Shown here: piece after piece, positions 35,432 through 56,807 of the stretch
Position numbering within the stretch: the first letter of the stretch is position 1
How the letters are laid out: the number at the start of each line of letters is the position of its first letter
Position numbers and translations under genes: made by a program
The notes under the pieces: model-generated
Databases searched by the model: none
What the model was told of the DNA's origin: nothing
Seen by the model: only the letters and a program-made list of their open reading frames with translations
Virus record (IMG/VR): IMGVR_UViG_3300037400_003374
Coordinates: 1-64,000 of that record
Reading direction: 5' to 3' (one strand)
DNA length: 64,000 nt
Source: a virus
Taxonomy: Duplodnaviria; Caudoviricetes

Positions 35432-36110
35432 GTTAGTTATGACTAACTAACTATTATAACAAGGGAAACGGGACGGCCCGGTTAGTTATGACTAACTAAC
35501 TAATAGTACTAAGGACAAGTAGACCTCCGGTTAGTTACGACTAACTAACTAAGCGTACAAAACTAGTTAGTTATGACTAACTAACTTATGTCGGGCACTG
35601 CGGGACCGGTCCCGTTGTCGCGAGTACGACACTAGTTAGTTACGACTAACTAACTACTCGAACGGCGCTGTGGCAAAGCAAGAGTTAGTTATAACTAACT
35701 AACTATTATAGCGGAGGCGCAGACCTCCGGTTAGTTATGACTAACTAACTAGTACGTTACTAGTTAGTTATGACTAACTAACTATAGGTAGGGCTCCGCG
35801 GGACCGCACCAGTTAGTTATGACTAACTAACTATTTATAAGTGAAGTGTACGTCACTAGTTAGTTATGACTAACTAACCATTTTGTAATTAAAGCGCACG
35901 ACACGAGTTAGTTATGACTAACTAACTATTATAAGGATAAAAGAGTAGCGTACAGGTTAGTTATGACTAACTAACTATTATGAGAGCAGTGACGGAACGG
36001 ACCAATTAGTTATGACTAACTAACTATCAGGTGGCGCGCAGGTTAGTTATGACTAAGTCACCATTTTATGGTTTAACGTTAAACCGCAGTTAGTTATGAC
36101 TAAGTCACTA
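35432..36110 (+). repeat. Repeat-spacer array: 15 copies of ~22-bp GTTAGTTATGACTAACTAACTA with unique 11-47 bp spacers
   Basis: Copies start at 35432, 35481, 35530, 35566, 35635, 35684, 35730, 35763, 35812, 35859, 35907, 35956, 36005, 36042 and 36089. Most spacers are 24-27 bp. Confidence 0.9.
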
Positions 36111-37246: not shown

Positions 37247-37460
37247 GTTAGTTATGACTAACTAACTATTATGTCATTATAATGGTAGTGCACGGGTTAG
37301 TTATGACTATATCACTATTATTAAAGTATCACTGTAGCGCACAAGTTAGTTATGACTATATCACTATTATAGTTTAACGTTAAACCACAAGTTAGTTATA
37401 ACTATATCACTATTCTAGTTTAACGTTACACTATAGCGGTTAGTTATGACTATATCACTA
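37247..37460 (+). repeat. Variant repeat-spacer array, 5 copies (four are GTTAGTTAT(G/A)ACTATATCACTA), period 46-49 bp
   Basis: Copies at 37247, 37296, 37345, 37391 and 37439; spacers carry the palindrome GTTTAACGTTAAAC or a variant. Confidence 0.85.
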
Positions 37461-37558
37461 ATGCGGTTTAACGTTAAACTTGTCTATGCCGTTCCGGAGA
37501 GACAGAGATAAAAGTATAACTATTATACAGGACAAAAGAAAAGGCATAGCCTTTTGGG

Positions 37559-38008
37559 CTATGCTCTTGCAAGTTTCTGCAGGAATTTCTCATTTGTTAT
37601 CTCGCAGTTATCAAACTTGATTTGTACGTTTTCTCCGTTTATCTGTATGTCTCCAGTGACGTTAAACGGTTCACTATTCTTTTTCCATGTCCCTTGTGTA
37701 AACCGTTCAACTATGATTCGTTCAAAGTTATCACCTTTGTTATAAGTGCTATCTGCTTTCAAGTCTTGTTCGTGTCCGCACATTGTAGCCAGCTTTAACA
37801 GTTCTGCTTTCTGAGCTTTGTTCAACTTAATGCGAACCTTTGCAAATCCTCCGCGCTTGCTTGATGCATGGTCAAGACTTGTATACTGCTTTAATTCTTC
37901 AAAGGTGAGCGTTACGTAATACAGAATACCTTTTACTGCAAACCCAAGTATGTAAAGATGGGAAGCACTAAGGAGATTGTAAAGAGTCAGCATAGTTTCA
38001 AGTGTCAT
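37559..38008 (-). CDS. Hypothetical protein, family C (LDHASSKRGG), ends at TAG
   Basis: Paralog of 42419-42862; its TAG lies inside the terminator hairpin GCATAGCC-CAAAA-GGCTATGC. Confidence 0.78.
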   Translation of the reverse strand: MTLETMLTLYNLLSASHLYILGFAVKGILYYVTLTFEELKQYTSLDHASSKRGGFAKVRIKLNKAQKAELLKLATMCGHEQDLKADSTYNKGDNFERIIVERFTQGTWKKNSEPFNVTGDIQINGENVQIKFDNCEITNEKFLQKLARA

Positions 38009-38640
38009 ATTGCAATCCTTCTTTCTTAATGTTTGTCAGTTCCATCTGACAGTTACTATTATACTCATGCCGGCAGAAATGTCAAGCACTTTTTTTAGAA
38101 AAAATGTAAAAAGTTTTCGGGAAGAATCCGCCACCATTTATATACATATATATAACTATTCAGAAAGATATATACATATACATAACTATTCAGATATGTA
38201 TAAGTATATAATCATTATGACGTTATACATATTCCGGTACATACCAGTTAGTTATGACTAACTAACTCATAGTTCTCTCCCATTGTGTATATAGTAGCAT
38301 ATAATTATCATTGTGTCAAGCACTTTTTTCAAAGTCAACGGAACGGAAAAACGATAAGTTGCCATAGAGATAAAATAGTTATATATGTATATATAACTAT
38401 TTTGGCAATGACGAGTTTATAATAGTTAGGCGCGCCTAACTGGCGCGCCTTTTCCACCATGCACATTATAGCAAAGTATTCGCAACTTGTCAAGTAAAAT
38501 TTTTAAAAATGGCGATCCGGGAAAACGTTATAACATTATAACAATAGAGTATAACAGAAAAGGCATGGAATCAATTTCCATGCCTTTTCTCTTGTTCTTG
38601 TCCGGCCTTTTGGCAGGAAGGAAAGGATTATTTCCTTTCC

Positions 38641-38955
38641 TTATAAATCCTCACCCATGTCCGATTCATAGCAATCAGCACACAAGTACTTTCCATGTTC
38701 AAAGTCACAGCACCATGATTCCAAGGAGAAATAATCAACCTTTTCCTTGCACTCAGCACAGCAGAATACTTTCTGAGACCGGATAGCAGAACCGAAGAAC
38801 AATTCCTTGTAGCGGTCAGTATAAACAGTATCATCATAGGAACGGCGTACCATTTTTCCACCGCGTTTGAAGTAATGAGGAACATGTACAGTTTTCTTTT
38901 CTTCTTCTTTCATCTCATCAACCAAACCCATTACCATTTTTACTTCAGTAGTCAT
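38641..38955 (-). CDS. Cys-rich hypothetical protein, family B, copy 2
   Basis: Paralog of 36481-36795. Confidence 0.75.
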   Translation of the reverse strand: MTTEVKMVMGLVDEMKEEEKKTVHVPHYFKRGGKMVRRSYDDTVYTDRYKELFFGSAIRSQKVFCCAECKEKVDYFSLESWCCDFEHGKYLCADCYESDMGEDL

Positions 38956-39027
38956 TTTCAAATCCTTCTTTCTTTTAATTCGTTCCCTCAGGAACTGTCT
39001 GTATTGTATCATGTTTCTCCGGCATTG

Positions 39028-39327
39028 TCAAGCATTTTTTTCAAGAAATTTTTTATATCTTTCCGTGTCCTTCCAAACATCCATAGTTCTATAAGTACGC
39101 GGTTCGATACTGAAGTTTTTTAAGCCGCCGTCCCATGCAAGAGCAAACACATTAAGAATGCAGATAGGAACAATCAGAAGGACATAAACAGGTACTTTCA
39201 TTTTAGAAATAACATTTACGCTATATTCTTTTTCTTCAATATAGTGATTGCATGCCAGCTTTTCAAGCATATGCATTTTCTTAAAACCAAGCAAGATAGC
39301 AAGTTCGGAATAACTAATCTTTTTCAT
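39028..39327 (-). CDS. Hypothetical protein with one predicted TM segment, 99 aa
   Basis: Own promoter, AAGGAAAA leader hairpin, AGAAAGG RBS; hydrophobic stretch VPVYVLLIVPICILNVFALAW. Confidence 0.7.
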   Translation of the reverse strand: MKKISYSELAILLGFKKMHMLEKLACNHYIEEKEYSVNVISKMKVPVYVLLIVPICILNVFALAWDGGLKNFSIEPRTYRTMDVWKDTERYKKFLEKNA

Positions 39328-39674
39328 AACAATTACCTTTCTGGTTTTTTAGGACTTTTCCTTGTCCTTTTGACGGTTAGAGTATAGCATAGTTTTCTGA
39401 GCGTGTCAAGCACTTTTTTTAAAAATCTTTTTTCTCACATATGTATATAGCCATAACTAACCGCTTGCCGGCGAACTAGTTAGTTTTAGCTAACCGGTGG
39501 GCCTTTTCCACCATGCATATTATAGCAAAGTCTTTTCAAACTGTCAATAGGTTTTTTTCGCAAGAGTGCCGGATCAGCATTGACACCTATTGAAATATAA
39601 TGATGATACTTTTATAACTATTATGCAAAAGAAAAAGCATGAACTTTTGTTCATGCTTTCTTTATCCGATTTAG

Positions 39675-39860
39675 TTACTCTCCGCAAGCGGTATATACTC
39701 TTTCACTCTTGCACCATACTTCAATACTTTCTTCACTTGTGAACTTGTCCCCGTCTTCTTCTTTGTAAAGCTTTTCAGCAATTGCAATGGCCTTTTCAAG
39801 TGTCTCAGCGGTCTCCCAAGCATCGAATCCTTCCCAAGTCTGTAAACCGATTGTAAACAT
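39675..39860 (-). CDS. Small hypothetical protein, family A, copy 3
   Basis: Paralog of 36162-36347. Confidence 0.75.
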   Translation of the reverse strand: MFTIGLQTWEGFDAWETAETLEKAIAIAEKLYKEEDGDKFTSEESIEVWCKSERVYTACGE

Positions 39861-40011
39861 TTTTCATACTTCCTTTCTTTTAATGTTCCCTCAGGAACTG
39901 TCTATATTATACAGCCGGCTATAAATTTTGTCAAGCACTTTTTTTATTTTTTTAAAAAACTTTTTTCCGGCATGGAAGGGAAAGGATTGTTTCCTTTCCC
40001 TTCCATATCTG

Positions 40012-40206
40012 TTACTGCTTTCCATATTCCTTGATGAGATACTCCAGATTGTAAGTCATGTCATGCAGTTTAGTGTTAGCGTAATAATCATCAAGTATGG
40101 AAGTGTCAGGATATGCTTTGTCAGCGAGAGAATGAATAACTTCAATGGCCTTCTGAAGGATAGCAATCTCATTTTCTGAGAGAGTGTAGCTAAAACGGTT
40201 AGTCAT
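40012..40206 (-). CDS. Small hypothetical protein, family D, copy 1
   Basis: Paralog of 46363-46560 (AIxVIHxLADKxYPD...KLHDMTYNL). Confidence 0.75.
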   Translation of the reverse strand: MTNRFSYTLSENEIAILQKAIEVIHSLADKAYPDTSILDDYYANTKLHDMTYNLEYLIKEYGKQ

Positions 40207-40425
40207 GGTGTAAACCCCTTTCCTTTAGTTGATGATTGAAGTATAATGCATTTTGATGTTTTTGTCAAGCACTTTTTTTAACTTTTTTCAAAAATTTTTT
40301 CTTTCATCAATTGTTATAACGTTATAACTTTTTTCCGGCATGCCGGCATGGTATACATGGCGATCCGTTAACAGAGATATAAAAAAGGGCTTTACGCCCT
40401 TTAATAGTGCCGTTTTCATTATAGT

Positions 40426-40587
40426 TTAAATTGAGTCACACAATGGCCAACCAAACATTTCCGACTCTTTGCACCATTCTTCAAAGGAAAGATAATGTGC
40501 ATAATCTCCATGCTCATAAATGATATCACTCACATAAGACTCATAACAATCACGTTTTTGTTCGTCGGTTAATTCTTTCCAAGTCAT
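40426..40587 (-). CDS. Small hypothetical protein, 53 aa
   Basis: MTWKELTDEQ...; GAAAGGGG RBS, own promoter. Confidence 0.65.
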   Translation of the reverse strand: MTWKELTDEQKRDCYESYVSDIIYEHGDYAHYLSFEEWCKESEMFGWPLCDSI

Positions 40588-40655
40588 TTTTTTCTTTCCC
40601 CTTTCTTTTGGGCTTTTCGTCCACAACTATATGATAATGCTTTTTTCTGTATTTG

Positions 40656-40880
40656 TCAAGTGACTTTTTCAATCACAAGCCAGCTATCATCAATCTCATA
40701 TGCATTTTCTGTTTTTGCTTGTATAGCTTTTCCCCATCCCATTCTAATACAATGATCTGCAGATGAGTATGTATCAAACGTTCCATTCCATTCACCAAAC
40801 TTAGTTGAAATATCGGGAGTGTCACAAAAGGCAATTTTGTAAAGTTCTGCATCCTTGTGTTTCTTGCTAAAAAGTTTCAT
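40656..40880 (-). CDS. Small hypothetical protein, 74 aa
   Basis: AGAAAGGA RBS, own promoter near 40935. Confidence 0.65.
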   Translation of the reverse strand: MKLFSKKHKDAELYKIAFCDTPDISTKFGEWNGTFDTYSSADHCIRMGWGKAIQAKTENAYEIDDSWLVIEKVT

Positions 40881-41103
40881 AATACTTCAGTCCTTTCTTT
40901 GAAGTATCTATATGATAGCATAGGCGCGCGAAAATGTCAAGCGAAAATTTTTAAAAAATTTTTTTAAAAAAACTCTTGACAACTTGTATCAGATGAGTAT
41001 AATATACATGACGGAACCGGAGAGAGGAGGGAGGAAACCGCCCAGTAGTTAGTTATGACTAACTAACTAGCAACTATAAGAAAAAAGGCCTTCCGGCCTT
41101 TTT

Positions 41104-41274
41104 TCAATCCATCATGATAACTTTTCCGCTTTCATAAACAATGTATGATTCCTCATCCGTTGCAGTCTCATCAAAAGCTTCGCACCATGCAATCACTTCG
41201 CTAAGTGTCTCAAAAGTTACTTCTAAGTCAGTGGGTTTCATTCCTTCATAGTTGGTGTAAATCTCGTACTTCAT
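41104..41274 (-). CDS. Small acidic hypothetical protein, 56 aa
   Basis: MKYEIYTNYEGMKPTDLEV...; RBS, own promoter and terminator; not in the ORF track. Confidence 0.65.
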   Translation of the reverse strand: MKYEIYTNYEGMKPTDLEVTFETLSEVIAWCEAFDETATDEESYIVYESGKVIMMD

Positions 41275-41467
41275 AATTCGTTGCCTTCTTTCTTTTAATC
41301 TGTTCCCTCAGGAACTGTCTATAGTATAATGCATAATAACCTTTTTGTCAAGTACTTTTTTTAAAAAAAAATAAAAAAAATTTTTTTCAAAAACCCCTTG
41401 ACAAATATAAATAAATGACTATAATATAATTGACAGGCCGGAGAGGGGAGGGGGAGGTGGACCATCG

Positions 41468-42282
41468 GTTAGTTATGACTAACTAACTAAAATTAGACAC
41501 GACTAACTTTAGTTAGATAAAACTAACTAGAGTTAGTTATGACTAACTCAATAATAGTTAGTTGTAACTAACTGCCTCATCCACCGGTCCCGATCCGGTC
41601 CGTAAAGTCAAAGAAAGTCAAAGTCAAAGAAAGTCAAAATCAGGCGCGAGTTAGTTATGTCTAACTATAGTTAGTCATGCCTAACTCAGGTGCCTTATCC
41701 GAACCGATCCGAAAAGTCAAAGAAAGTCAAAGTCAAAGACGAGTTAGTTATGACTAACTCAATATTAGTTAGTTATAGCTAATTATAGTTAGTTGCAACT
41801 AACTAGAGTTAGTTATGACTAAGTCACTATTAGTTAGTTGGCACTAACTAGAGTTAGTTATGACTAACTAACGTTAGTTGTACCTAACTACAGTTAGTTG
41901 TGACTAACTATAGTTAGTCATGTCTAACACGAGTTAGTTATGACTAAGTCACTATTGGTTAGGTATAACTAACTAGAGTTAGCCGTGACTAACTGTAGTT
42001 AGTGGTGTCTAACTAAAGTTAGACAAGCCTAACTTTAGTTAGCTGAGACTAACAGAAGTTAGCTGGGACTAACGCTAGTTAGTCAAGACTAACTAAAGTT
42101 AGCTGCGTCTAACTGAAGTTAGATATAACTAACTAAAGTTAGCTGGGACTAACTGGAGTTAGCTGAGACTAACTCCGGTTAGCTGTAACTAACTAAAGTG
42201 AGCTGAATCTAACTGTAGTTAGTTGTAACTAACTTTAGTCAGCTGAACCTAACTCCGCCGGCGCTGGTTAGTTATGCCTAAC
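41468..42282. repeat. Dense array of ~33 palindromic GTTAG-N6-CTAAC sites, including 15 units in exact 20-bp phase (41958-42253)
   Basis: Unit GTTAG-N6-CTAAC-N4; the N6 and N4 sequences vary while arms and spacing are fixed. Confidence 0.93.
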
Positions 42283-42305
42283 TACCTGGGCCGATCGCCG
42301 GCGCC

Positions 42306-42350
42306 TGTGGATAACTCTGTGGATAATTTTGTGGATAAAATTGTGGATAA
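42306..42350. promoter_or_regulatory. Four tandem perfect DnaA boxes (TGTGGATAA) at 12-bp period
   Basis: TGTGGATAA at 42306, 42318, 42330 and 42342, the reverse complement of consensus TTATCCACA. Confidence 0.88.
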
Positions 42351-42355
42351 GTGGG

Positions 42356-42384
42356 TTGACACATTAGCGCCCCGGGTGTATACT
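42356..42384 (+). promoter_or_regulatory. Strong sigmaA-type early promoter (representative of roughly 50 in 36300-57100)
   Basis: TTGACA-N17-TATACT. Similar TTGACA-N16-18-TATAAT promoters with upstream A/T tracts precede most small genes on both strands (approximate manual count). Confidence 0.85.
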
Positions 42385-42418
42385 TGACTCATCAAATGAA
42401 GGAAAGGAAGTCACGAAC

Positions 42419-42862
42419 ATGACCAAGGAAATGATGCAGGAACTTTACAACAAGGTATCGGGGGCTCACAAGTATGCTCTGGGCTTTATCTTCCAGCACA
42501 AGCTGTATGCCGTCAAGCTGAGCTTTGAGGGAATCAGTAAGTATTTCAAGCTGGACCATGCAAGCTCTAAGAGGGGCGGATATGCAAAAATCCGTATTCG
42601 CCTGACCGCCGCGGACCGTGCTAAGCTGAGTGAAGTGGCGGAGCTGCTGGGAGCTGAAGAGCTGCTGACCAAGGACACCAAGTACAACAAGGGTGAGAAC
42701 TTCGAACGGGAGCTGACAGAACGCTGGACCGGAGAAACCTGGGTAAAGGATAGTGTCCCCTTCTGGGTATGCGGTGATATCCGGGTAGACGGTGAAGAGA
42801 TTCAGATCAAGCTGGACGGTGCGGAGCTGACCAACGAGAAGGTACTGGCAGGGCTGGCCTGA
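42419..42862 (+). CDS. Hypothetical protein, family C, copy 2
   Basis: Paralog of 37559-38008; TGA stop. Confidence 0.8.
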   Translation: MTKEMMQELYNKVSGAHKYALGFIFQHKLYAVKLSFEGISKYFKLDHASSKRGGYAKIRIRLTAADRAKLSEVAELLGAEELLTKDTKYNKGENFERELTERWTGETWVKDSVPFWVCGDIRVDGEEIQIKLDGAELTNEKVLAGLA

Positions 42863-43033
42863 GGCCCTGCCGGATCGGCCCCGGCCGATCCTTTTCTATG
42901 CCGGCAAGCTGGGGCTGGAAAACGCGCCGGCGAGCTGGGCTTGCCGGCAAAAAATTTTTCGCTGGGGCGAAAAACCCCTTGACAAGCTGGCTGTAATACG
43001 CTATAATGTGTACATGAAAGAGAGGTGCTAAGT

Positions 43034-43228
43034 ATGGAGATTGTAAAGTTTGGACGGACTTGGGTAATAAATACTGTTGCTGACTATGAGCACGCCATGG
43101 AGGTACTGGACGGGAATGAGTTCTGCGCGGACATGTCGGACGACTGGGCACGCGCTGATAGGGAGAAAGCTGAGATAAGGCGGCAAAGGCGCGATGTCAT
43201 AGCACAAGCTGGCAAGCTGAAGGCTTGA
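43034..43228 (+). CDS. Small hypothetical protein, 64 aa
   Basis: GAGGTG RBS, own promoter at 42980. Confidence 0.65.
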   Translation: MEIVKFGRTWVINTVADYEHAMEVLDGNEFCADMSDDWARADREKAEIRRQRRDVIAQAGKLKA

Positions 43229-43275
43229 CAAGCTCCAAAATTATGATATAATTAATAGTGAAAGGAGCTGATAGC

Positions 43276-43788
43276 ATGGGCATAAAACGAGATTTTGCCC
43301 CAGTGACAAAAGCGCTGAATGCTTTTGTACGCAAGTTTGATGAAGAATATTCTTGTACACTTGGCCCCGCTTTTGAGGCCATTAATGATGAAATTATTAT
43401 CTATACTGTAATGGTATGTGATAATACTGCTCTTTCCTTCCGTAATGATTTTATAAAGCGTTTTCCCGCTTGTGCTGACTTCAATCTGTTTACATTATCA
43501 TTCATGCATGAACTGGGACACTTAGAAACGGCGCTGGATACAGTTAATGATATAGAAGAAAGAAATGAAATAAATGCTATGAGCAACCGCGAACTAGCAT
43601 TGACCAAATATTATCAACTGTATAATGAATGCCTCGCTACTAATTGGGCGGGACAGTATCTGACTAAACATCATAAGGATATGAAAGTCTGGGAAAATAA
43701 AATTACAAAACTTTTTAAAAAAGTACTTGACAAACATTCCACTAAGTCGTATAATGATGATGTTGAAAGGAGCGATTGTAATGAATAA
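43276..43788 (+). CDS. HExxH zinc metallopeptidase-like protein, copy 1
   Basis: LSFMHELGH motif plus downstream E-x-x-A; paralog at 56366-56806. Confidence 0.7.
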   Translation: MGIKRDFAPVTKALNAFVRKFDEEYSCTLGPAFEAINDEIIIYTVMVCDNTALSFRNDFIKRFPACADFNLFTLSFMHELGHLETALDTVNDIEERNEINAMSNRELALTKYYQLYNECLATNWAGQYLTKHHKDMKVWENKITKLFKKVLDKHSTKSYNDDVERSDCNE

Positions 43789-43999
43789 ATTCTACATGGG
43801 TATCGAGTGCCAGTGCCCGCTGTGCGGAGCAACCGCAAACGTGTATGTTAAGACTATTGATTATCGTGCTTGGCGTGCAGGCGCTTTAGCACAGACTGTT
43901 TTCCCCTACTTGAAACCGCAGGTACGGGAAATGTTAATTAGCGGTTTGTGCCCGACTTGCTATGATAGCTTGATGGGCGAGGATGAGGAGGGCGAGTAA
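43781..43999 (+). CDS. Zn-ribbon protein, 72 aa
   Basis: CQCPLC...CPTC; GAAAGGAG RBS; own promoter at 43728. Confidence 0.68.
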   Translation: MNKFYMGIECQCPLCGATANVYVKTIDYRAWRAGALAQTVFPYLKPQVREMLISGLCPTCYDSLMGEDEEGE

Positions 44000-44147
44000 T
44001 CGCCCTACCCTCCGCCCGCCGGCGGGGCCTTGAATTGGCGCGAGAACTGTGCTAAACTAATGATACGATATAAAAATTTATTTTAAAAAGTACTTGACAA
44101 AGAAATGAAAATGTCGTATAATCTAGCCATAGAAAGGAAGGATAGCA

Positions 44148-44600
44148 ATGATGAAACAGATTTGGTTTGACATGGATGGCACGATTGCAAACCTTTATGC
44201 AGTGGATGGATGGCTTGAAGATATTAGAGCAGAAAATACAAGGCCGTATAGCGAAGCAAAGCCTATGCTTAACTTCTCTCTGCTTGCTCGTTTACTGAAT
44301 CAGGTACAGCGTGCAGGATGGGAAATCGGAATTGTAAGTTGGGGAGCAAAGAATAGCACAGAAGAATTTTTGAAAATGACTGGTTGCGCTAAGTTCTATT
44401 GGCTTCAGAATCATCTCCCCTCTGTAAATTGGAATCACATTTATATTGATTATTACGGTACAAATAAATTTCAGCGTTGTGGCGGTGAAGGCATTCTGTT
44501 TGATGATGAAGCGCAGAATCGTGAAGCGTGGGAAAATGGCATGGCATACGAACCGATGGAAATTATCAATGTCTTGAAGCGGTTAGCAAAAGGGGCTTGA
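44148..44600 (+). CDS. HAD-superfamily phosphatase (nucleotidase-like)
   Basis: Motif I FDMDGT, motif II IVSW, motif IV LFDD. Confidence 0.8.
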   Translation: MMKQIWFDMDGTIANLYAVDGWLEDIRAENTRPYSEAKPMLNFSLLARLLNQVQRAGWEIGIVSWGAKNSTEEFLKMTGCAKFYWLQNHLPSVNWNHIYIDYYGTNKFQRCGGEGILFDDEAQNREAWENGMAYEPMEIINVLKRLAKGA

Positions 44601-44636
44601 CAAGCCCCTTGCAATCAAAGAAAGGAGCATTGAAGT

Positions 44637-44828
44637 ATGAGGGTTGAAGATTTGGCAAAGGCACTGTGGGTATTAGATAACGATAGCGCAAAACGGCATT
44701 GGACAGTAGAGAAAATTCAAGGCGGTTATATTCTTATGTCCGATCATACTCGCTTTACTGTAAAAGAATTAGCAAATAAATATGATGATAAGCATGAAAC
44801 AGATAGTATAATTCCTGGCTTTAATTGA
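44637..44828 (+). CDS. Small hypothetical protein, 63 aa
   Basis: GAAAGGAG RBS. Confidence 0.6.
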   Translation: MRVEDLAKALWVLDNDSAKRHWTVEKIQGGYILMSDHTRFTVKELANKYDDKHETDSIIPGFN

Positions 44829-44981
44829 CCAGATACGACAATGTCAAATCTGGTCGCCGGCAAATTTTTCCTAAACAATTTTGTTTTATATATCCCATAA
44901 CCTAATTTCATTCTGAATCGTTGAACAAAAATTTTTTTAAAAAGTGCTTGACATTTTCCTAAAATGGATTATAATAGTAAC

Positions 44982-45080
44982 TGTCAGAAGGGAAAGGGCT
45001 CCTTCTGATAGAACTTGGAACGGTAGGCAGAGTTTCCTCCCAACGTCGCCGCAAGCGTTGCCTTCCAAGTTCGCTCTACC
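44982..45080 (+). ncRNA. Candidate structured leader/sRNA with possible pseudoknot
   Basis: Promoter at 44948; 10-bp 5' hairpin; 10-bp stem GAACTTGGAA/TTCCAAGTTC; loop GGTAG complementary to downstream CTACC. Confidence 0.45.
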
Positions 45081-45102
45081 TAATTAAGAAGGAGAAAAGT
45101 AT

Positions 45103-45342
45103 ATGGAAAAGTATGTTTATGTTGTCACAATTGAAGATGAAGAAGGAATAACAATCTTTGGTGCTTATACTGATGCAGTATCTGCTACCAATACTGTATG
45201 GGCGCTTGCCTTTAATAGTCTGATTCAGGATATTGAAGAAGATTGTATAGGTACGCGATACATTGTTATCAATGCTTTGGGTAATAAGGAATCATATTAT
45301 GTCCAGAAAATTCCGCTAGATGACCAGTTCTGGACCCGATAA
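45103..45342 (+). CDS. Small hypothetical protein, 79 aa
   Basis: AAGGAG RBS. Confidence 0.68.
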   Translation: MEKYVYVVTIEDEEGITIFGAYTDAVSATNTVWALAFNSLIQDIEEDCIGTRYIVINALGNKESYYVQKIPLDDQFWTR

Positions 45343-45436
45343 CCCACCCCTTGCCGGCGGATTGTTAAAAATTTAACAAACTTTTTTTGAAAAAAGCGCT
45401 TGACAAAAACCCGAAAAGGAGTATAATCATACTTGT

Positions 45437-45530
45437 CAGAGGGACAAAGGATCACCTCTGGAAGTGCAAAGGGTAAGGGAATGATCCCCCAATTACACCG
45501 CAAGTGTCTTACCCTTTGGGCGACTCCCAA
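45437..45530 (+). ncRNA. Candidate stand-alone structured sRNA (three-way junction)
   Basis: Own promoter at 45400, no convincing ORF before the next promoter. Stems CAGAGG/CCTCTG, AAAGGGTAA/TTACCCTTT, GGGA/TCCC, ACAC/GTGT, TTGGG/CCCAA. Confidence 0.5.
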
Positions 45531-45629
45531 AAAAAATTTCAAAAACCTCTTGACATTCTAGTACAAAAGTACTATAATGAATACACAACAGAGGAAGGAA
45601 AACCTCATCAAACCAGAAAGGCAACCCCT

Positions 45630-45950
45630 ATGAAAAAGTCCACTCTTCAGTCTCTCGTTTCCTACCTGACCGAAAAGGGCGATGAGTCCATGCAGGAAGT
45701 CCTCGCAGAACTGACCGCAGAACTTGCAAAGGGACAGACCAAGGTTGATGCAACTCGGAAGGAATATGATGAAATGCGTGAGCAGGTCATGGAAGTCCTC
45801 CGCTCTGCTACCCTTCCTGTTTCTGCGCAGGAGATCGCCGATGAGACTGGCCTTTCAAAGGGCAAGATCGTCTATGGTCTGACTCGGCTGTGGGCCGCAG
45901 ATGTCGCAAAGACTGAGGGAAAGGTTAGCACCTACGCCCTCAAGGCCTAA
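45630..45950 (+). CDS. Winged-helix-like DNA-binding protein, family W (MKKST...), copy 1
   Basis: SAQEIADETGLSKGKIVYGLTRLW HTH-like segment followed by wing EGKVSTY; three close paralogs. Confidence 0.72.
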   Translation: MKKSTLQSLVSYLTEKGDESMQEVLAELTAELAKGQTKVDATRKEYDEMREQVMEVLRSATLPVSAQEIADETGLSKGKIVYGLTRLWAADVAKTEGKVSTYALKA

Positions 45951-46102
45951 TTTCAAAAAGGAACTCGCTTCGGCGAGTTCTTTTTTTATACAAGAGTTAG
46001 TTTCCTCTAACTCCGCCGGCGCAAAAAATTTTTTTAAAAACCCCTTGACAAGATAAGCATACTAGTGTATAATCTAACCATCAACTGAAGGAGGTCACCA
46101 TT

Positions 46103-46252
46103 ATGGTAGACGTTTATCTGGTCTGGTATTACAACCTTAAACTCAGCGAAGAAGCACTTCTGTGGGGCATTTACACTACCAAGGAAAAGGCAGCCAAGGC
46201 GCTTGCTGATAGCGGCTTTACTGGTTGGATTAACCATGAAGTCGCGGAGTAA
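46103..46252 (+). CDS. Small hypothetical protein, 49 aa
   Basis: AAGGAGG RBS, own promoter; MVDVYLVWYY...; not in the ORF track. Confidence 0.62.
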   Translation: MVDVYLVWYYNLKLSEEALLWGIYTTKEKAAKALADSGFTGWINHEVAE

Positions 46253-46362
46253 TCTCCGCGGCTTCGGCCCCGCGCCGGCAAAAATTTTTTAAAAAAGTGC
46301 TTGACAACCATGTGAAAACATGCTATACTCTAGTCATCAACCAAAGAAAGGAAGTTATCAAG

Positions 46363-46560
46363 ATGACGAACTACACCATGACTGAAAAGGAAATTGCTAC
46401 CCTTAAGGACGCTATCAAAGTCATCCATGAACTTGCAGATAAAGTTTATCCCGACTACTCTAATCTTGATGAGCACTACGCCAACATCAAGATGCACGAC
46501 ATGACCTACAACCTCAAGTATCTTCTGGCCCAGTTCGGACAGGAAGGGGAGGCGGATTGA
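46363..46560 (+). CDS. Small hypothetical protein, family D, copy 2
   Basis: Paralog of 40012-40206. Confidence 0.75.
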   Translation: MTNYTMTEKEIATLKDAIKVIHELADKVYPDYSNLDEHYANIKMHDMTYNLKYLLAQFGQEGEAD

Positions 46561-46700
46561 GGGGCCTCCCTCCGTCCTTGCCGGCGGCCTGCCGGCGCCC
46601 CGCCAATTTCATTTTACCACAGAAAAAATATAAAAAAAGTGCTTGACAAAAGACGACAAAGGCATTATAATGTACCTATCAAATGAAGGAGGCCACCGCT

Positions 46701-47213
46701 ATGAAGTCCAGTTACGAAGCACGCGCCATCAAGTTCGCACATGTACTTGCCAACATGTTTGAAGACTGCATTGACCTGTATGATTTTGAAAACGTGATTT
46801 ATAACTACAATCTCACGCACTCCCGCAAGATCAAGTATGCTCATGGTGTGTCCCGTATTGCTATCATCCGCGCTGACTATGTTATCAAGTTCAACATGTA
46901 CCCCGAAGAAGACTTCGAAGATGGGCGCGCAGGAAACAACATGAGTGAAAGCGCAGTGTATGAAAGGGCAGTAAAGGCAGGAATGGCCCACCTTCTGGCA
47001 AAACCCACCATTATCAAGATTAACAATCAGGTTATTTCCATCATGCCCCGCATCAATGGTATTGATAACTGGGAGCGTGAATGGTATAACTATTGCACCG
47101 AAGAAGAAGCGGACTGGCTTGATGAAAATGTTTGCGACTTACATGAGGGCAACGTAGGATACCGCCACGGAAAAGTATGTGTGGTAGACTATGCTTGGGA
47201 CAGGGACATGTAG
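46701..47213 (+). CDS. Atypical protein-kinase-like (RIO/APH-fold-like) protein, 170 aa, ends at TAG
   Basis: HGVSRIA (P-loop-like), VIKF (Lys), DLHEGN (catalytic loop), VVDYA (DFG-like); TAGTAG followed by a terminator hairpin. Confidence 0.68.
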   Translation: MKSSYEARAIKFAHVLANMFEDCIDLYDFENVIYNYNLTHSRKIKYAHGVSRIAIIRADYVIKFNMYPEEDFEDGRAGNNMSESAVYERAVKAGMAHLLAKPTIIKINNQVISIMPRINGIDNWEREWYNYCTEEEADWLDENVCDLHEGNVGYRHGKVCVVDYAWDRDM

Positions 47214-47365
47214 TAGATAGGGGGAAACATTCCCCTATCTTACCAGATTGTACATGCCCGCATGCCGGCACGTCTGCCGGCGCGAGATTGACAGAAATTT
47301 AACAATCTTTTTTCAAAAAAGTACTTGACAAAAAATCCATTATCCCTTATAATACTCAATGTCAG

Positions 47366-47472
47366 GTGAGGGGAATAGCGCCTCCCTCACAAGAACCAGT
47401 GATTGAGGTGTGGCGACCCCAAGTAGACGAGGGTAACTCCTTGGAGAGGTAGAGTAGTCTTTCAGTCACTGG
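47366..47472 (+). ncRNA. Candidate stand-alone structured sRNA
   Basis: Own promoter at 47325; GTGAGGG/CCCTCAC hairpin, then 11-bp closing stem CCAGTGATTGA/TCAGTCACTGG around inner hairpins; no convincing ORF. Confidence 0.5.
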
Positions 47473-47544
47473 GACGAAAAAAATGCTTGACAAGCTGAGG
47501 AAATTATGCTATAATACTCACGTAATCAAGAGGAGGTGCAAGCT

Positions 47545-47682
47545 GTGAAATTCCTGAGCTGTGCATTAACCATGTGGGGTATTCTGTGGGGCATGTTCAT
47601 CCCGCCCTTCCTGTGGTTGTCCGCTGTCGGTATCGTGCTCATGATGGTGACTTGTTTGTTTATGGACGAGCAAACAAATTAA
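47545..47682 (+). CDS. Small membrane protein, 45 aa
   Basis: AGGAGG RBS, GTG start, MKFLSCALTMWGILWGMFIPPFLWLSAVGIVLMMVTCLF; not in the ORF track. Confidence 0.65.
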   Translation: MKFLSCALTMWGILWGMFIPPFLWLSAVGIVLMMVTCLFMDEQTN

Positions 47683-47783
47683 AAAAATTTTCAAAAAACT
47701 CTTGACAAATCACAAAACATCATGTATAATACTTAATGTAAACAGGGGAAGGAAAACCCCACAAACCAGAAAGGAATTGCCCT

Positions 47784-48113
47784 ATGAAAACTTCTTCTTA
47801 CGAAACTGTGTACGCTTTCCTGACCGCTAACGGATTTGAAGACGCCGAGATTCTCGCTGAGTTTGAGAAGGAAATTAACCGTAAGGCCGAAGTAAAGCAG
47901 GCCAAGGACACTCTGTACTCCGAAGCAAAAGCAATCGTGATGTCCGCTATTGAAGGCGCTTCCGCTACCATCGGTGAGATTTATGAAGCGGTTGAATCTG
48001 AACTCCCTGAGGGCTTCACCAAGGGCATGTTGCAGTACGCCATTACTCGCCTGTGGAAGGACGAACTTGTCAAGACTGAGGGCAAGGTCAATCGGTACTC
48101 TCGCAAGGTCTAA
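47784..48113 (+). CDS. Winged-helix-like protein, family W, copy 2
   Basis: Paralog of 45630-45950. Confidence 0.75.
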   Translation: MKTSSYETVYAFLTANGFEDAEILAEFEKEINRKAEVKQAKDTLYSEAKAIVMSAIEGASATIGEIYEAVESELPEGFTKGMLQYAITRLWKDELVKTEGKVNRYSRKV

Positions 48114-48264
48114 TCTCTAAGGCTCGCCTAGCGAGCCTTTTTTATGGCTATGAGTTAGTTGTGTCTAACTGCGCCGGCAAATTTTTTTTGAAAAAACTCT
48201 TGACATTTGTTTGAAAATCGATTATAATACCATTGTCACGAAGAGAAAGAAAGGTTGTGTAAAC

Positions 48265-48450
48265 ATGAAAGTTAAATTTACCGTTGCTGATTTGGATGCG
48301 CTTGAAGAAGTATACTATGAACTCGAAGGAACTATTCCCGCAAATACTACTCATGTTCCCAAAGAAGTAACATCCCGTATTATTGGCGAATTATGGCGCC
48401 GTATGGCAGAGCGTATTCAGAAGGAAGAAAAGAAAAAAGCGAGAGATTAA
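48265..48450 (+). CDS. Small hypothetical protein, 61 aa
   Basis: AGAAAGG RBS, own promoter. Confidence 0.62.
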   Translation: MKVKFTVADLDALEEVYYELEGTIPANTTHVPKEVTSRIIGELWRRMAERIQKEEKKKARD

Positions 48451-48526
48451 AAAAACTCTTGACAACTTCTACAAGATCGGTTATAATAGCATTGTTCCCA
48501 AGAGGAACAGAAAGGGAGTAAATAAA

Positions 48527-48700
48527 ATGGAAAAAACCTATACAGAGCAGGAAATCAAAGACTGGTTCAAAAGCATGATGAAAGAATACCCGAATAGCCA
48601 GATGAGTCAGCATCTGCAGTCGGTGTATGATGAAATGTTTGATCCCTTTTGGAAAAGAAATAATTTGAAAACTTTTGTTGAAAAAAGGGTTGACAAGTAA
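48527..48700 (+). CDS. Small hypothetical protein, 57 aa
   Basis: AGAAAGGGAG RBS, own promoter. Confidence 0.62.
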   Translation: MEKTYTEQEIKDWFKSMMKEYPNSQMSQHLQSVYDEMFDPFWKRNNLKTFVEKRVDK

Positions 48701-48756
48701 ACAGACTGGTGCTATAATACAACTGTCCCAAAGGGAACAGAAAGGATGGATTGAAA

Positions 48757-48957
48757 ATGATTACTAATTGGTATGAAATGGACGAATGGTCAGAAAATGA
48801 AATTATTAATACTGTTGCTAAGTATGTAAGAGGGATGGATGGAACGAAGTTAGACCAAAAAGATAAACAGCAGATTAAGGAGCTTTATAAAAAGAATCCT
48901 CTCATGTTGCAGATTATTTGTTCCGCATTTCACTCTGAAGGCTATGATTCGTTTTAA
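48757..48957 (+). CDS. Small hypothetical protein, 66 aa
   Basis: AGAAAGGA RBS, own promoter. Confidence 0.62.
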   Translation: MITNWYEMDEWSENEIINTVAKYVRGMDGTKLDQKDKQQIKELYKKNPLMLQIICSAFHSEGYDSF

Positions 48958-48975
48958 GGAAAGGATGAATATAAA

Positions 48976-49146
48976 ATGTGTACGCCACAGCAAAAAGAAA
49001 AACACGTTGAAATGATTAAGAAACTTAGCGATATTATTGCTAACTGCGATAATGATACCGAATTTTTCATTCGTTTAATCTGGGCTAATGAATGGATTAG
49101 TGAGCAGTTAAAAAAATCTCTTGACAACTTCTATAAAATCAGCTAA
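48976..49146 (+). CDS. Small hypothetical protein, 56 aa
   Basis: GAAAGGA RBS; MCTPQQKEKH...; not in the ORF track. Confidence 0.55.
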   Translation: MCTPQQKEKHVEMIKKLSDIIANCDNDTEFFIRLIWANEWISEQLKKSLDNFYKIS

Positions 49147-49187
49147 AATGGTATTGTTCTCAAGAAGAACAGAAAGGATGAATTAAA

Positions 49188-49412
49188 ATGTTTTATGGTA
49201 ACCATTTCCGCGGATTATGGAAATATGTTTGGTTTCGTTGCCTGATTACCTCTTTCGTTAATACGGTTGCAAACTGGGCAACTCGCCACGGTATCCCTTT
49301 TTATGTTTCTACTTGGTATAATATTAACAATGGTTTTACTGCAGACAAGATTGAAACTATGAGTAAACAGTATCTTGAATGGGCAAGGCAGAATGAGAAA
49401 GAAGATGATTAA
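49188..49412 (+). CDS. Small hypothetical protein, 74 aa
   Basis: AGAAAGGA RBS, own promoter. Confidence 0.62.
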   Translation: MFYGNHFRGLWKYVWFRCLITSFVNTVANWATRHGIPFYVSTWYNINNGFTADKIETMSKQYLEWARQNEKEDD

Positions 49413-49681
49413 AGTTGGTTAGTCGGCGCTAACCGCGCCGGCAAGGCGATCCGCCGGCAGGGTTAGTTATGACTAACTAACCCGAAAAAATTTTTTTATA
49501 AAATGCTTGACAACTTTTCAAAAATATACTATAATAAACATGTTCCAAGGGACGAGGTCAAGAAAATTCCAAACTGAAAAAAAAGTTTGAAAAAACTCTT
49601 GACAGACTTCCAAAACTATGCTATAATAAGCACGTAATCAAGGGAAGGAAAACCCTAACAAACCAGAAAGGACACTAAATT

Positions 49682-50008
49682 ATGAAGAAGTCTACTTTTG
49701 AAGCTATCCGCACCGCTCTTACCAAACTGGGTTATGACAATGCCGAAGTCCTTGCCGAGCTGGACAAGGAAATCAACAAAGGCGCTGATGTCAAGGCTAA
49801 GAATTCTGAGGTCTACGAGTCCTTCCACGACATTCTGATTGACAACCTCGCCACCTCTCCCGCAACTTGTGGCGAGATCTACGAGGCCATCAAGGACAAC
49901 CTCCCTGAGGGTATCACCAAGGGCAAGGTTCAGTATGCTCTGACTCATCTGTGGCAGGATGAGATTGTAAAGATTGAGGGCAAGCCTAATACCTACCGCA
50001 AGGCATAA
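49682..50008 (+). CDS. Winged-helix-like protein, family W, copy 3
   Basis: Paralog of 45630-45950. Confidence 0.75.
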   Translation: MKKSTFEAIRTALTKLGYDNAEVLAELDKEINKGADVKAKNSEVYESFHDILIDNLATSPATCGEIYEAIKDNLPEGITKGKVQYALTHLWQDEIVKIEGKPNTYRKA

Positions 50009-50133
50009 GCCTTTCCTTCTTGGTGGCGAAAACTGACTCGCCTTAATTGATGCGTAAGCGCTCCGTATAGCCAAGAACCACGAGAGTTTCTGAAGGGCTT
50101 TCAGTGTGGCTAAACAACACAAGCCCTTTATAC

Positions 50134-50219
50134 GGGAATGAGGACGATCAGATAATTGTCAGGCCCCTCGTGGGTAAGCGCAAGGCGCCAAGTGGGTGCG
50201 ACTCCCACCATTTCCACCA
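50134..50219 (+). ncRNA. tRNA-like element with alanine identity (G3.U70, A73, encoded CCA) and degenerate anticodon arm
   Basis: Acceptor GGGAATG/CATTTCC-A-CCA; T arm GTGGG-TGCGACT-CCCAC; D arm GACGAT/ATTGTC; extra arm GCGC/GCGC; terminator directly after. Confidence 0.68.
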
Positions 50220-50220
50220 A

Positions 50221-50242
50221 CCGCCTTCGGGCGGTTTTATTT
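50221..50242 (+). terminator. Intrinsic terminator
   Basis: CCGCC-TTCG-GGCGG followed by a T-rich tract. Confidence 0.85.
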
Positions 50243-50502
50243 TCAAGGCGAGTTAGTCTCAACTAACTCCGCCGGCGATGTTAGGCGTGACTAACTAAAA
50301 ATTTTTTTCTCCAAACTATTGACAAAATTTCAAAACTATACTATAATACAATTGTTCCAAGGAACGGGGACGGACTTAGGAAGGTGAGATGTTAAAGGTT
50401 GCCATGAAGTTTCTGTAGTCCCAGGAAATGGAGTGGCCAGGTTTCTGCGTGGCTTTCCCTGTTACGGAAAAAGTCACGCCCATTATGAAAGGGGTAAAAA
50501 TT

Positions 50503-50760
50503 ATGAGTAAAATTCTGGATGTAGAATGGCAGTCTTGGCATGAATTATCAGTGAATGTAGATGAAATTGTTGATGATTGTAAATATAGAATGGAAAAGTG
50601 GCATGTCCCTCTTGAAGAAGTAGTAGATATTGCAATTGAAGGTTATGTTTCTGGATTCGATGATGCACTGTATTACAGTTGGAACGAGGATGCGCAGAAA
50701 CAGGTAAGAGACGCCGTATTGCAGGCTTTCGGCGGTGTGCAGCTTAGCATGTTTGACTAA
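50503..50760 (+). CDS. Small acidic hypothetical protein, 85 aa, with a long structured leader
   Basis: GAAAGGGG RBS; promoter at 50319; leader hairpin GCGTGGC-TTTCC...GGAAA-AAGTCACGC. Confidence 0.62.
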   Translation: MSKILDVEWQSWHELSVNVDEIVDDCKYRMEKWHVPLEEVVDIAIEGYVSGFDDALYYSWNEDAQKQVRDAVLQAFGGVQLSMFD

Positions 50761-51029
50761 GCTAACCGCCCGCCGGCATATTTCTGCCGGCGGGAGTTAG
50801 TTATAACTAAGTAATTAAAAAAAATTTTTTCCAAGTAGTTGACATTCAGTGAAAATTGAGTATAATAGATACTGTCAGGAGGGAACAAGAGTCCCAATAA
50901 AAAAACTTTGAAAAAAAGTTTAAAAAAACTCTTGACAGACTTTCCAAAACCTGATATAATACAGATGTTCCCAAGGGAACGAACGAATGAGAAGGAAAAC
51001 TCAGCTAAACCAGAAAGGAAGATACCTCT

Positions 51030-51362
51030 ATGAAAAAGTCTACTATGAATGCTATCCTGTCCCTCATCTCCACCATGGATTCTCCCGAAGCTGAAACTGT
51101 ACGCAATGAGCTGACCGCTGAGCTGAACAGGGGAGCTGAAAAAGCTCAGGCAAATCGGGAGCTGTATGAGACCGCTTGGGATGCGGTTTATGGCGTGCTG
51201 GATGTCGAATATCCTGCTACTGTCGCTGAGATCTATGAAGCTGTAAAAGACTCTCTGCCCGCTGGTTTCACTAAGGCCAAGGTACAGTATGCGCTGGGAC
51301 ACTACTGGAACAAAGATGTCGTAAAGCATGAGGGCAAGGTTAACACCTACACTCGGGCTTAA
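51030..51362 (+). CDS. Winged-helix-like protein, family W, copy 4
   Basis: Paralog of 45630-45950. Confidence 0.75.
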   Translation: MKKSTMNAILSLISTMDSPEAETVRNELTAELNRGAEKAQANRELYETAWDAVYGVLDVEYPATVAEIYEAVKDSLPAGFTKAKVQYALGHYWNKDVVKHEGKVNTYTRA

Positions 51363-51598
51363 TTTCAACCTCTTGCGCCCTTCGGGGCGCCTTTTTATGC
51401 GCGGAGTTAGCCACAACTAACTCTGCCGGCCCGCGGTTAGGCAAGTCTAACTTCAAAAATTTTTAAAAAAAAATGCTTGACAATTTCCAAAATTATGCTA
51501 TAATAGACTCAAGAAGTTGAGGAACAGAAAAAAATTCCTCTTGACAACTTCTTAAAAACATGATACAATTAGTTGAACTTAAGGAAAGGATTGATTTT

Positions 51599-51937
51599 AT
51601 GAATAAGTCTCAGCTTGAAACCATGTTGCGCAACGACTACCTCGACACCCTTCAGAAACTTCTTTCCGAAAAATATGACACCGATGTGTTGCCTGTTAGC
51701 GCCAACGAACTTGCTCTCCCTTGTGTTGACGCGGAGGGCAACGAAAAATGGATTGTGGTAAAGGTTTCTACCCCTCGTGGGACTCGTGATGGCAAGGGCG
51801 GTTATATCCCTTATGATGGGTATGCTCTTGCGGAAGAATACCAGATGGAGTGCGAAGACAAGGCACAGGAAAAGGCCGAAAAACAGGCCATGAAGGAAAA
51901 GGAAAAGGAAAGCAAGAAAAAGAAAAAGGCCGAATAA
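51599..51937 (+). CDS. Hypothetical protein with Lys/Glu-rich C-terminus, 112 aa
   Basis: GGAAAGGA RBS; weak similarity to 55572-55970 and to the N-terminal half of 58679-59170. Confidence 0.7.
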   Translation: MNKSQLETMLRNDYLDTLQKLLSEKYDTDVLPVSANELALPCVDAEGNEKWIVVKVSTPRGTRDGKGGYIPYDGYALAEEYQMECEDKAQEKAEKQAMKEKEKESKKKKKAE

Positions 51938-52001
51938 TTCGGCCTTGACTTTCTCTTCATTCTATGCTATAATGGTCCACGTTGAAAGGAGCAATTTGAT
52001 T

Positions 52002-56806: not shown

Positions 56807-56807
56807 T

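Follow-up and report, generated by a model that had tools for sequence, protein, structure and literature searches.

Tandem candidate iron-box operators in the early control region of a TAG-recoded, SPbeta-like phage contig

Introduction

Iron-dependent repressors of the DtxR/IdeR type recognize a 19-bp operator, the iron box, for which the published DtxR consensus is TTAGGTTAGCCTAACCTAA (PMC7762939). Read as half-sites, this consensus decomposes into two TTAG-N6-CTAA dyads that overlap with an offset of 5 bp. The classical box is occupied by two dimers, which bind on opposite faces of the helix. Host DtxR also acts on phage-borne DNA, both at the corynephage tox operator and at targets within Corynebacterium glutamicum prophages (bioRxiv 10.1101/2025.01.02.631128); these are single operators over single promoters. 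Spo0A boxes, as well as parS sites, are found on the Bacillus phages phi29 and Nf, lytic-type phages of the Firmicutes in which sites for a host global regulator lie at early promoters or origins and the state of the host governs development (PMC2731898). In SPbeta, the short repeated operator SPBRE is found at about ten early promoters and is bound by MrpR, the phage's own recombinase-like repressor (PMC10516654).

Clusters of sites can lower the amount of free DNA-binding protein, as in the titration of DnaA by datA, a chromosomal locus of E. coli that serves the cell's own cycle, and in synthetic decoy arrays. No natural phage-borne repressor sponge is described in the literature that we searched, and searches for phage-borne decoy arrays or for DtxR boxes on phage genomes returned nothing describing such arrays. 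Tandem phased arrays coated cooperatively by small dimeric proteins are also found in parC of pSK41 and R1, in tubC of pBtoxis and of phage c-st, and in the oriP repeats of EBV. The Type II/III centromeres among these have element-specific motifs, with their own adaptor and NTPase genes adjacent.

Here we describe a 64,000-nucleotide window of gut phage DNA (positions 1 to 64,000 of the IMG/VR record IMGVR_UViG_3300037400_003374) in which a 1.1-kb non-coding region between divergent early promoters, hereafter the hub, contains 33 tandem dyads. The dyads share with the iron box their TTAG/CTAA half-sites and the N6 separation within the site of one dimer (PMC7762939), and differ from it in being separate, 20 bp apart and on about one face of the helix, whereas the dyads of the classical box overlap. 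In contrast to the single operators of the corynephage and the C. glutamicum prophages, they form a phased array. The phi29 sites are a handful and overlap promoters or origins; here there are 57 dyads, mostly in two arrays outside promoters, together with CtsR and DnaA sites, and this number and placement indicate titration as much as regulation. As with SPBRE (PMC10516654), some copies are dispersed across SPbeta-type early promoters, but SPBRE is a different motif and is not arrayed. Unlike at the Type II/III centromeres, no adaptor and NTPase genes were found, and the motif is that of a candidate host operator.

Results and Discussion

A TAG-recoded relative of the SPbeta-type phages

The window belongs to a 73.6-kb contig, a fragment of the virus record that is estimated to be 41% complete. 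Its terminase and head genes are similar to those of SPbeta-type phages of the Firmicutes; among the TerL matches are phages infecting Bacillus (the most numerous), Enterococcus, and Geobacillus, and also phAss-1, and one relative carries YonD_N and YonG_N domains. The contig is recoded: when TAG is read as a sense codon, a 5340-aa ORF containing 156 TAG codons becomes open, as does the entire leftward late operon. TAG is nearly absent from the rightward early genes. No RNA families or tRNAs were detected in the window or the contig (Rfam scan, ARAGORN).

Organization of the hub

The features of the hub and of the dyads outside it are as follows (coordinates in the window, strand in parentheses).

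35432..36110 (+): array A, the second array, made up of 15 nearly identical units of 26 bp (AGTTAGTTATGACTAACTAACTATTAT); its spacers are unique and its period is irregular
37247..57749 (no strand): 18 single or paired dyads outside both arrays, from the motif scan
40976..41104 (+): promoter, purine-rich leader, and one dyad (41048-41063), closed by a terminator; a second copy of the arrangement at 41398
41323..41351 (-): last strong leftward early promoter, by pattern, ahead of a 56-aa acidic ORF (41104-41274)
41398..41467 (+): promoter TTGACA-16-TATAAT (41398-41425) and purine-rich leader (GGAGAGGGGAGGGGGAGG) reading into array B, an arrangement kept in relatives
41468..42282 (no strand): array B, 33 units of A-GTTAG-N6-CTAAC-T, candidate TTAG-N6-CTAA iron-box dyads with one predicted repressor dimer per dyad
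41606..41638 (+): two overlapping perfect matches to the CtsR operator, AGTCAAA-GAA-AGTCAAA, at 41606 and 41622, inside an AAAGTC repeat
41715..41731 (+): third perfect CtsR operator, by pattern match
41958..42253 (no strand): core block of array B, with 15 units at an exact 20-bp register; bacterial feoAB operators space their paired dyads in the same way
42306..42350 (+): four perfect DnaA boxes TGTGGATAA with a 12-bp period, ending 5 bp ahead of the -35 of the promoter of the first rightward gene
42356..42862 (+): promoter TTGACA-17-TATACT and first rightward early gene (42419-42862, 147 aa), with its own perfect promoter downstream of array B

Strong leftward promoters stop at 41351, and rightward ones begin at 41398 and 42356. 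The location given in an earlier, sequence-only reading of this DNA, at the switch from leftward to rightward transcription and next to four DnaA boxes, is therefore correct, with one further rightward promoter at 40976.

Array B consists of 33 units, counting sites with one arm mismatch, and its conserved unit is the 18-bp A-GTTAG-N6-CTAAC-T. In the core block (units 41958-42238), 13 of the 15 units are exact and those at 42198 and 42238 have one mismatch each. The other 18 units are mostly spaced by 20 or 25 bp, and two gaps, of 93 and 73 bp, are filled with AAAGTC repeats. Both the count of about 33 palindromic sites and the 20-bp register of 15 of them had been proposed in the sequence-only reading and agree with our unit count and spacing. 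A motif scan of the whole window finds 57 exact matches to GTTAG-N6-CTAAC, against 0.07 expected from shuffles.

Off-consensus positions account for 14 of 396 in the arms of array B and 73 of 198 in the N6 (Fisher p = 4e-26); the arms are about 16 times better conserved than the N6. There are 25 distinct N6 sequences among the 33 units. Of the fixed arms and variable core described earlier, the near-invariant arms stand, but the N6 is not entirely free and leans toward Y-T-R-W-R-A. Tandem Repeats Finder reports further periods of 40, 60, 65, and 125 bp, showing that the array grew via block duplication and later diverged outside the arms. The arms and the 20-bp phase recur in other phage contigs with different N6 sequences, as expected from the earlier proposal of selection on a dyad protein-binding site rather than slippage. 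This comparison supports array B as a selected, phased set of putative dyad-symmetric protein-binding sites and not as slippage debris.

Two other kinds of candidate host sites share the hub. The CtsR pattern (A/G)GTCAAA-NAN-(A/G)GTCAAA has three exact matches in the contig, all of them in the hub, and none in shuffles. The same pattern is present in 52 of 81 sampled Clostridia genomes, compared with three matches in total for a reversed control, and in the eight Clostridia loci checked it lies upstream of ctsR (six), a Clp ATPase gene (one), or a dnaJ-like gene (one). A CtsR box is also found in the hubs of three relatives (L013, L014, and L015). Among bacterial genomes with the feoAB operator described below, the first five contain no CtsR box, and two of five others are positive. 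The four DnaA boxes at 42306-42350 are the full set of perfect copies of the DnaA consensus 9-mers (TTATCCACA) in the contig, where 0.4 are expected. At their position, relatives have different repeats, also with a 10-12 bp period; hub repeats in relatives include TGTTACA at 10-12 bp period, CACTTTAGC-NN-GCTAAAGTG, and 17-bp CGAGGTAYCTCAT repeats. Given these substitutions, we treat the DnaA boxes as candidate sites. With the CtsR, DnaA, and iron-box matches, the hub appears to combine candidate sites for three host DNA-binding proteins. Patterns for Rex, CIRCE, LexA, cre, Fur, NrdR, CodY, Spo0A, PerR, ArgR, and B. subtilis MntR are not enriched in the contig.

Conservation among related phages

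Three dyads in 20-bp register are found in seven IMG/VR contigs, with G+C contents of 0.30-0.49. Some of these contigs have long arrays, such as L002 with about 28 units in two blocks, and a degenerate dyad array is present in a human-gut phage fragment that lacks annotation. Larger relatives confine all of their dyads to one 13-16 kb stretch per record, and phAss-1, a published TAG-recoded relative by its terminase, has only one dyad. In two contigs, L007 and L008, 3-unit arrays in 20-bp register lie upstream of an early promoter. BLAST detected no proteins common to these two contigs and the phage, so the presence of the motif in them fits recognition by a host factor.

Where close relatives of the first early gene occur, the hub is retained, with only 0-7 dyads inside it. 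The closest (first early protein 82% identical) has 4 dyads in the hub, compared with 33 here, suggesting that the large array is dispensable. The motif and its phase are conserved among the relatives; the large array is not.

The dyad is found in front of bacterial iron-uptake genes

We searched one genome for each prokaryote species for a pair of dyads spaced 20 bp apart. At least 120 stretches of bacterial genomes contain this double dyad; the genomes belong to many phyla, have G+C contents of 0.31-0.74, and include members of the Oscillospiraceae, Lachnospiraceae, Christensenellales, Gastranaerophilales, Treponema, Actinomycetota, Succinivibrio, and Fibrobacter. Most of the at least 120 matches listed contain exactly two dyads. 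The loci were selected by the dyad pattern itself, and at least six of those listed are phage-like contigs related to the phage; the MAG that holds two of these contigs has no DtxR-family gene. The neighbors of the double dyad, as numbers of loci among the at least 120 listed, are as follows.

feoA or feoB immediately adjacent: 33 loci
feoAB within 2.5 kb: 41 loci
small wHTH/DtxR-like regulator cluster adjacent: 10 loci
DtxR-family regulator gene within 2.5 kb: 22 loci
ABC-transporter solute-binding protein adjacent: 9 loci
IlvD, an Fe-S enzyme, adjacent: 6 loci

Other neighbors among the matches listed are iron-type solute-binding proteins and PFL. The neighboring regulators are 120 to 150 aa long and combine Fe_dep_repress and Fe_dep_repr_C domains with an invariant C-x2-E-H, which we take to correspond to the Fe-type ligands C102, E105, and H106. 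Of five genomes in which the double operator is chromosomal, four have a single Fe_dep_repress/Fe_dep_repr_C protein. The bacterial sites found here, which precede iron-uptake genes beside DtxR-family genes with Fe-type ligands, thus resemble the DtxR/IdeR system in setting as well as in motif.

Like array B, the bacterial sites have fixed arms, a free N6, and a free N4. The conserved flanking A and T and the frequent GCCGGC neighbor are properties of the phage units and not of the bacterial sites. Each phage unit, G-TTAG-N6-CTAA-C, corresponds to one dyad of the DtxR consensus; this holds for 33 of 33 units with one arm mismatch allowed. The canonical 19-bp two-dimer box, TWAGGTTAGSCTAACCTWA, is not enriched in the contig, where three matches with up to 4 mismatches compare with two expected. 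Taken together, the feoAB and DtxR neighborhoods and the DtxR consensus suggest that the dyad is an iron box, an operator of the DtxR/IdeR type, and that the array repeats the 20-bp register of a natural two-dyad operator. The phage dyad is a candidate operator of a DtxR/IdeR-type Fe-dependent repressor, and the motif is not phage-specific. In this the result departs from the earlier view of a motif private to the phage, since the same dyad in the same 20-bp register fronts bacterial feoAB and other iron-uptake genes beside genes of the DtxR family. The comparison also defines an operator architecture for widespread small DtxR-family regulators, in which two TTAG-N6-CTAA dyads, set 20 bp apart, precede feoAB.

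In a random draw of 80 Clostridia genomes, the double operator was found in none, indicating that the regulator-operator pair is patchily distributed and that the host must belong to a lineage that has it. Five whole bacterial genomes that use the operator contain 2-12 exact dyads each, compared with 57 in the 73.6-kb contig; per operator, the comparison is two dyads in the bacterial double operator versus 33 in the phage array.

Candidate binding proteins

A gene with a DtxR dimerization domain is absent from the contig and four related records (five incomplete phage records). One relative, G001, has a gene for a 122-aa protein whose only DtxR-like part is the HTH (26.5 bits); the contig has no homolog of it. 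The most widespread DNA-binding-like family of the motif-carrying relatives is family W, a set of winged-helix-like paralogs present in 12 of 17 sequence sets. The sequence-only reading had nominated these proteins as the ones that bind the dyads. Family W is also present in L018, a relative without a dyad, and its alignment with DtxR domains is not significant (hhalign probability 1%); pairwise comparisons with the DtxR-like HTH protein of G001 found no similarity. We have accordingly set family W aside as a DtxR-like binder. Because the records lack a dimerization-domain gene, the HTH protein has no counterpart here, and family W fits poorly, a host repressor would be the most economical binder of the dyads. 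A phage-encoded mimic may also bind them, given the HTH-only protein of G001.

Array A and the dispersed dyads

Array A separates the early-left genes from the start of the TAG-recoded late operon. Its period is irregular (33-69 bp), and it falls outside the entry on array B in the sequence-only reading. Outside both arrays, the dyad is dispersed over 22 kb of the contig. The single dyads of the rightward region follow a terminator and are found at only about a dozen promoters, 32-42 bp ahead of the -35, out of roughly 45 early promoters with a perfect consensus, a restriction that goes unmentioned in the sequence-only reading. The order of elements in these cassettes is fixed: terminator, dyad, GCCGGC, A/T tract, promoter. 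With this distance from the -35, off the promoter and with no common helical phase, simple repression by the single dyads is not expected.

A platform for host regulators, and alternatives

We consider it somewhat probable that the 33 tandem candidate iron boxes, with the CtsR and DnaA sites, form a platform that sequesters host regulators, senses them, or both. We infer from the operator match that Fe2+-loaded DtxR/IdeR-type repressor dimers, most probably those of the host, would bind each TTAG-N6-CTAA dyad; the 20-bp register would place neighboring dimers next to each other on almost the same face of the helix. Phage DNA, on entering the cell and replicating, would then pull the repressor off its chromosomal operators, and CtsR and DnaA likewise. 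The repressor should be drawn away because the dyads of the phage genome are several times those of a host chromosome; if the repressor binds and the phage replicates, titration would follow almost arithmetically. The predicted consequences are that iron uptake and Clp stress genes are turned on and that DnaA is withheld from oriC. At the same time, occupancy of the array would tie the early control region to the metal state of the cell, through read-through from the 41398 promoter and through the dozen early promoters flagged by dyads. Of the roles suggested for the hub in the sequence-only reading (centromere, origin, or protein sink), the protein sink survives, with a host protein as the thing sunk, and the centromere does not.

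Phage-borne sites for host regulators are otherwise known as a few promoter operators; the scale here, 33 phased candidate iron boxes and several-fold more sites than in a whole host genome, is different and suggests that non-coding phage DNA may work as a sponge or an ultrasensitive sensor of host metal status. More speculatively, large gut Firmicutes phages may use gene-free arrays of host operators, placed on the part of the genome expressed first, as a weapon, sequestering repressors and the replication initiator while the DNA enters and multiplies, a generalization that we put forward only tentatively. If true, iron uptake, the Clp stress response, and chromosome replication would be reprogrammed without a phage protein, and array size would be a fast-evolving dosage trait. 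Such a takeover mechanism would be invisible to gene-centered annotation and would link phage infection to iron uptake in gut anaerobes, and hosts could be inferred from the operators that a phage carries.

A credible but rather unlikely alternative is that the host repressor binds with the sole purpose of regulating the phage itself, coating of the array blocking or permitting read-through from 41398 or the firing of an origin at the DnaA boxes. In iron-replete cells the coating would be cooperative, and the single dyads would insulate or tune particular early cassettes, much as Spo0A acts on phi29, which offers a precedent for a switch. The layout of the region is consistent with this: the 41398 promoter fires directly into array B via a leader kept in relatives, the single dyads have a fixed slot in the cassette grammar, and array A occupies the very junction of the early-left genes with the recoded late operon, a point at which a roadblock would have an effect. 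Relatives also retain a few hub dyads even without a large array. However, 33 sites are far beyond the needs of a switch, the number of dyads varies widely among close relatives, the first early gene has a perfect promoter of its own downstream of array B, and the dyads are out of phase with promoters. We therefore favor, as somewhat probable, the reading in which host repressors are sequestered and also used for sensing, and place a purely cis-regulatory switch second, as the less likely explanation.

The phasing of the array invites a comparison with partition systems, as phased 20-bp dyad arrays recall the parC centromeres of pSK41 and R1 and the tubC centromeres, and pSK41 parC is also built of 20-bp repeats. 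Under such an interpretation, a phage-encoded dimeric DNA-binding protein, either family W or a DtxR-like HTH protein, would occupy the dyads, and the hub would be an iteron origin or the partition centromere of a plasmid-like prophage. Array B does have the phased tandem sites expected of a centromere (15 in 20-bp register, 33 in total), and the hub is also the site of the DnaA boxes, of an A/T tract (41330-41395), and of the cumulative GC-skew minimum. This skew minimum, looked for as a sign of an origin, coincides with the switch in transcription direction, which the skew tracks. With the contig about 41% complete, partition or Rep genes could sit elsewhere, and both the prevalence of family W among the motif-carrying relatives and the HTH protein of G001 would fit a phage-encoded binder. 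The other evidence, however, argues against a phage-encoded partition or iteron system, which we regard as improbable. The TubZ- and ParA-type genes that the sequence-only reading would lead one to expect were not recovered: no gene matches ParB_N, ParA (AAA_31), or tubulin at cut-off in the contig and four related records, which are 41-81% complete, and the control of the StbA_N (ParM) search matched in no genome. The flanks of array B encode the 56-aa acidic ORF and a protein of unmatched fold rather than anything ParR- or TubR-like, family W occurs without the dyad and does not align with DtxR domains, and the HTH protein has no homolog in the contig. Furthermore, the large array is not kept in the closest relative (4 dyads), the dyad is a bacterial operator, and SPbeta relatives are integrating phages with pac-site packaging. 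As an iteron origin, the hub has DnaA boxes and an A/T tract but no adjacent Rep gene; a 118-aa HTH_36 protein is encoded 22 kb from array B. An origin using the DnaA boxes could operate alongside the host-regulator platform.

That the array is a packaging (pac) region, a neutral minisatellite, or an assembly artefact is very improbable: the SPbeta genome does open at an intergenic late/early border (between yonP and yonR) and array A is just upstream of the operon with the terminase gene, but copies of the same dyad are spread across 22 kb, bacteria use it as an operator, its arms are far better conserved than the N6, the units differ enough for unique assembly, and arrays recur in independent contigs.

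Other features of the region

The 147-aa product of the first early gene belongs to a large family (829 matches) with invariant residues E96, D120, Q129, and K131, resembling a PD-(D/E)xK motif. Its structural model (pLDDT 98) has no match in Foldseek pdb or in VIA-align wide (best Z 2.6). We do not assign it as a binder or a nuclease, since despite the PD-(D/E)xK-like residues the confident fold model matches no solved structure.

The spacers of array A are each unique; a CRISPR reading of this array was discarded on the basis of its irregular period (33-69 bp) and the absence of cas genes. Integron attC sites have arms in the order AAC...GTT, opposite to that of the dyads, and this assignment was likewise dropped. 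An RNA-hairpin reading of the dyads was set aside, as the arms are invariant, showing no covariation, and most single sites follow terminators. GCCGGC lies within 12 bp of 15 of the 18 out-of-array dyads. Finally, the unit at 40976..41104, in which a promoter, a purine-rich leader, and one dyad are closed by a terminator, is possibly a small RNA unit.

Early cassettes and their control sequences

The early region (window 36400-63600) is laid out as small genes, one per cassette, each with its own promoter and a terminator at the end. About 45 perfect TTGACA-16/17-TATAAT promoters lie in this interval, most of them preceded by an A/T-rich tract. The features considered here are as follows.

Window 40976-41104 and 41398-41467: strong promoter, purine-rich leader (GGAGAGGGGAGGGGGAGG-like) and dyad (GTTAG-N6-CTAAC, a candidate DtxR-type iron box), in two copies
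Window 35432-36110: array A, the second dyad array
Window 42419-42862 (+) and 37559-38008: first early gene and its paralogue, members of one large family
Window 44148-44600: HAD/NT5C-like protein, 150 aa
Window 2591-35035 (-): TAG-recoded late operon, whose ORF opens when TAG is read as sense
L009:400-600, L015:5690-5880, L003:250-375 and L014:5690-5800: hub repeat families other than dyad arrays, in relatives

The promoter-leader-dyad copy at 40976-41104 is closed by a terminator and could possibly yield a transcript of ~90 nt. The purine-rich leader is kept in the relatives L013, L014 and L015.

Array A consists of 15 near-identical units of 26 bp in uniform orientation, each comprising two dyads offset by 4 bp; the spacers are each unique and frequently contain GC-rich palindromes. 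The contig contains 39 copies of GCCGGC against 4.6 expected; 37 of these copies fall in the early region (window 35000-64000). Among the 18 single dyads outside the arrays, 15 have a copy no more than 12 bp away.

The hubs of relatives, i.e. their early control regions, carry CGAGGTAYCTCAT units (17 bp, nine copies), about 12 TGTTACA units with a 10-12 bp period, located exactly where the DnaA boxes are found here, and CACTTTAGC-NN-GCTAAAGTG palindromes. These repeats may be operators for other host regulators.

Early genes

The family of the first early gene is large, with 829 close hits and 295 clusters at 50% identity, and has no Pfam or PHROG match. Residues G92, E96, D120, Q129 and K131 are invariant. 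The AlphaFold model of the first early protein (pLDDT 98) matched no solved structure (best Z 2.6). The HAD/NT5C-like protein matches a PHROG 5'-3' deoxyribonucleotidase (E = 5e-8). Among phage contigs that carry the dyad motif, no other early protein is shared as widely: it is present in 13 of 17 sequence sets. Separately, compared sequence L012 encodes a Thg1-like tRNA-His guanylyltransferase domain (9066-9845; contig 71066-71845; E = 6e-29), neighbored by SpoIID-like and dCMP deaminase-like proteins.

Host

Two contigs related to the phage, L030 and L079, with proteins up to 70% identical to those of the phage, are binned with one Acutalibacteraceae MAG, a weak hint as to the host. CtsR boxes are present in this MAG, in which no DtxR-family gene was seen.

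Late operon

Reading TAG as sense reveals an ORF of 5340 aa (4527-20549) containing 156 TAG codons. No suppressor tRNA was found across the 73.6-kb contig. In the close relative L010, the equivalent head genes are called without recoding.
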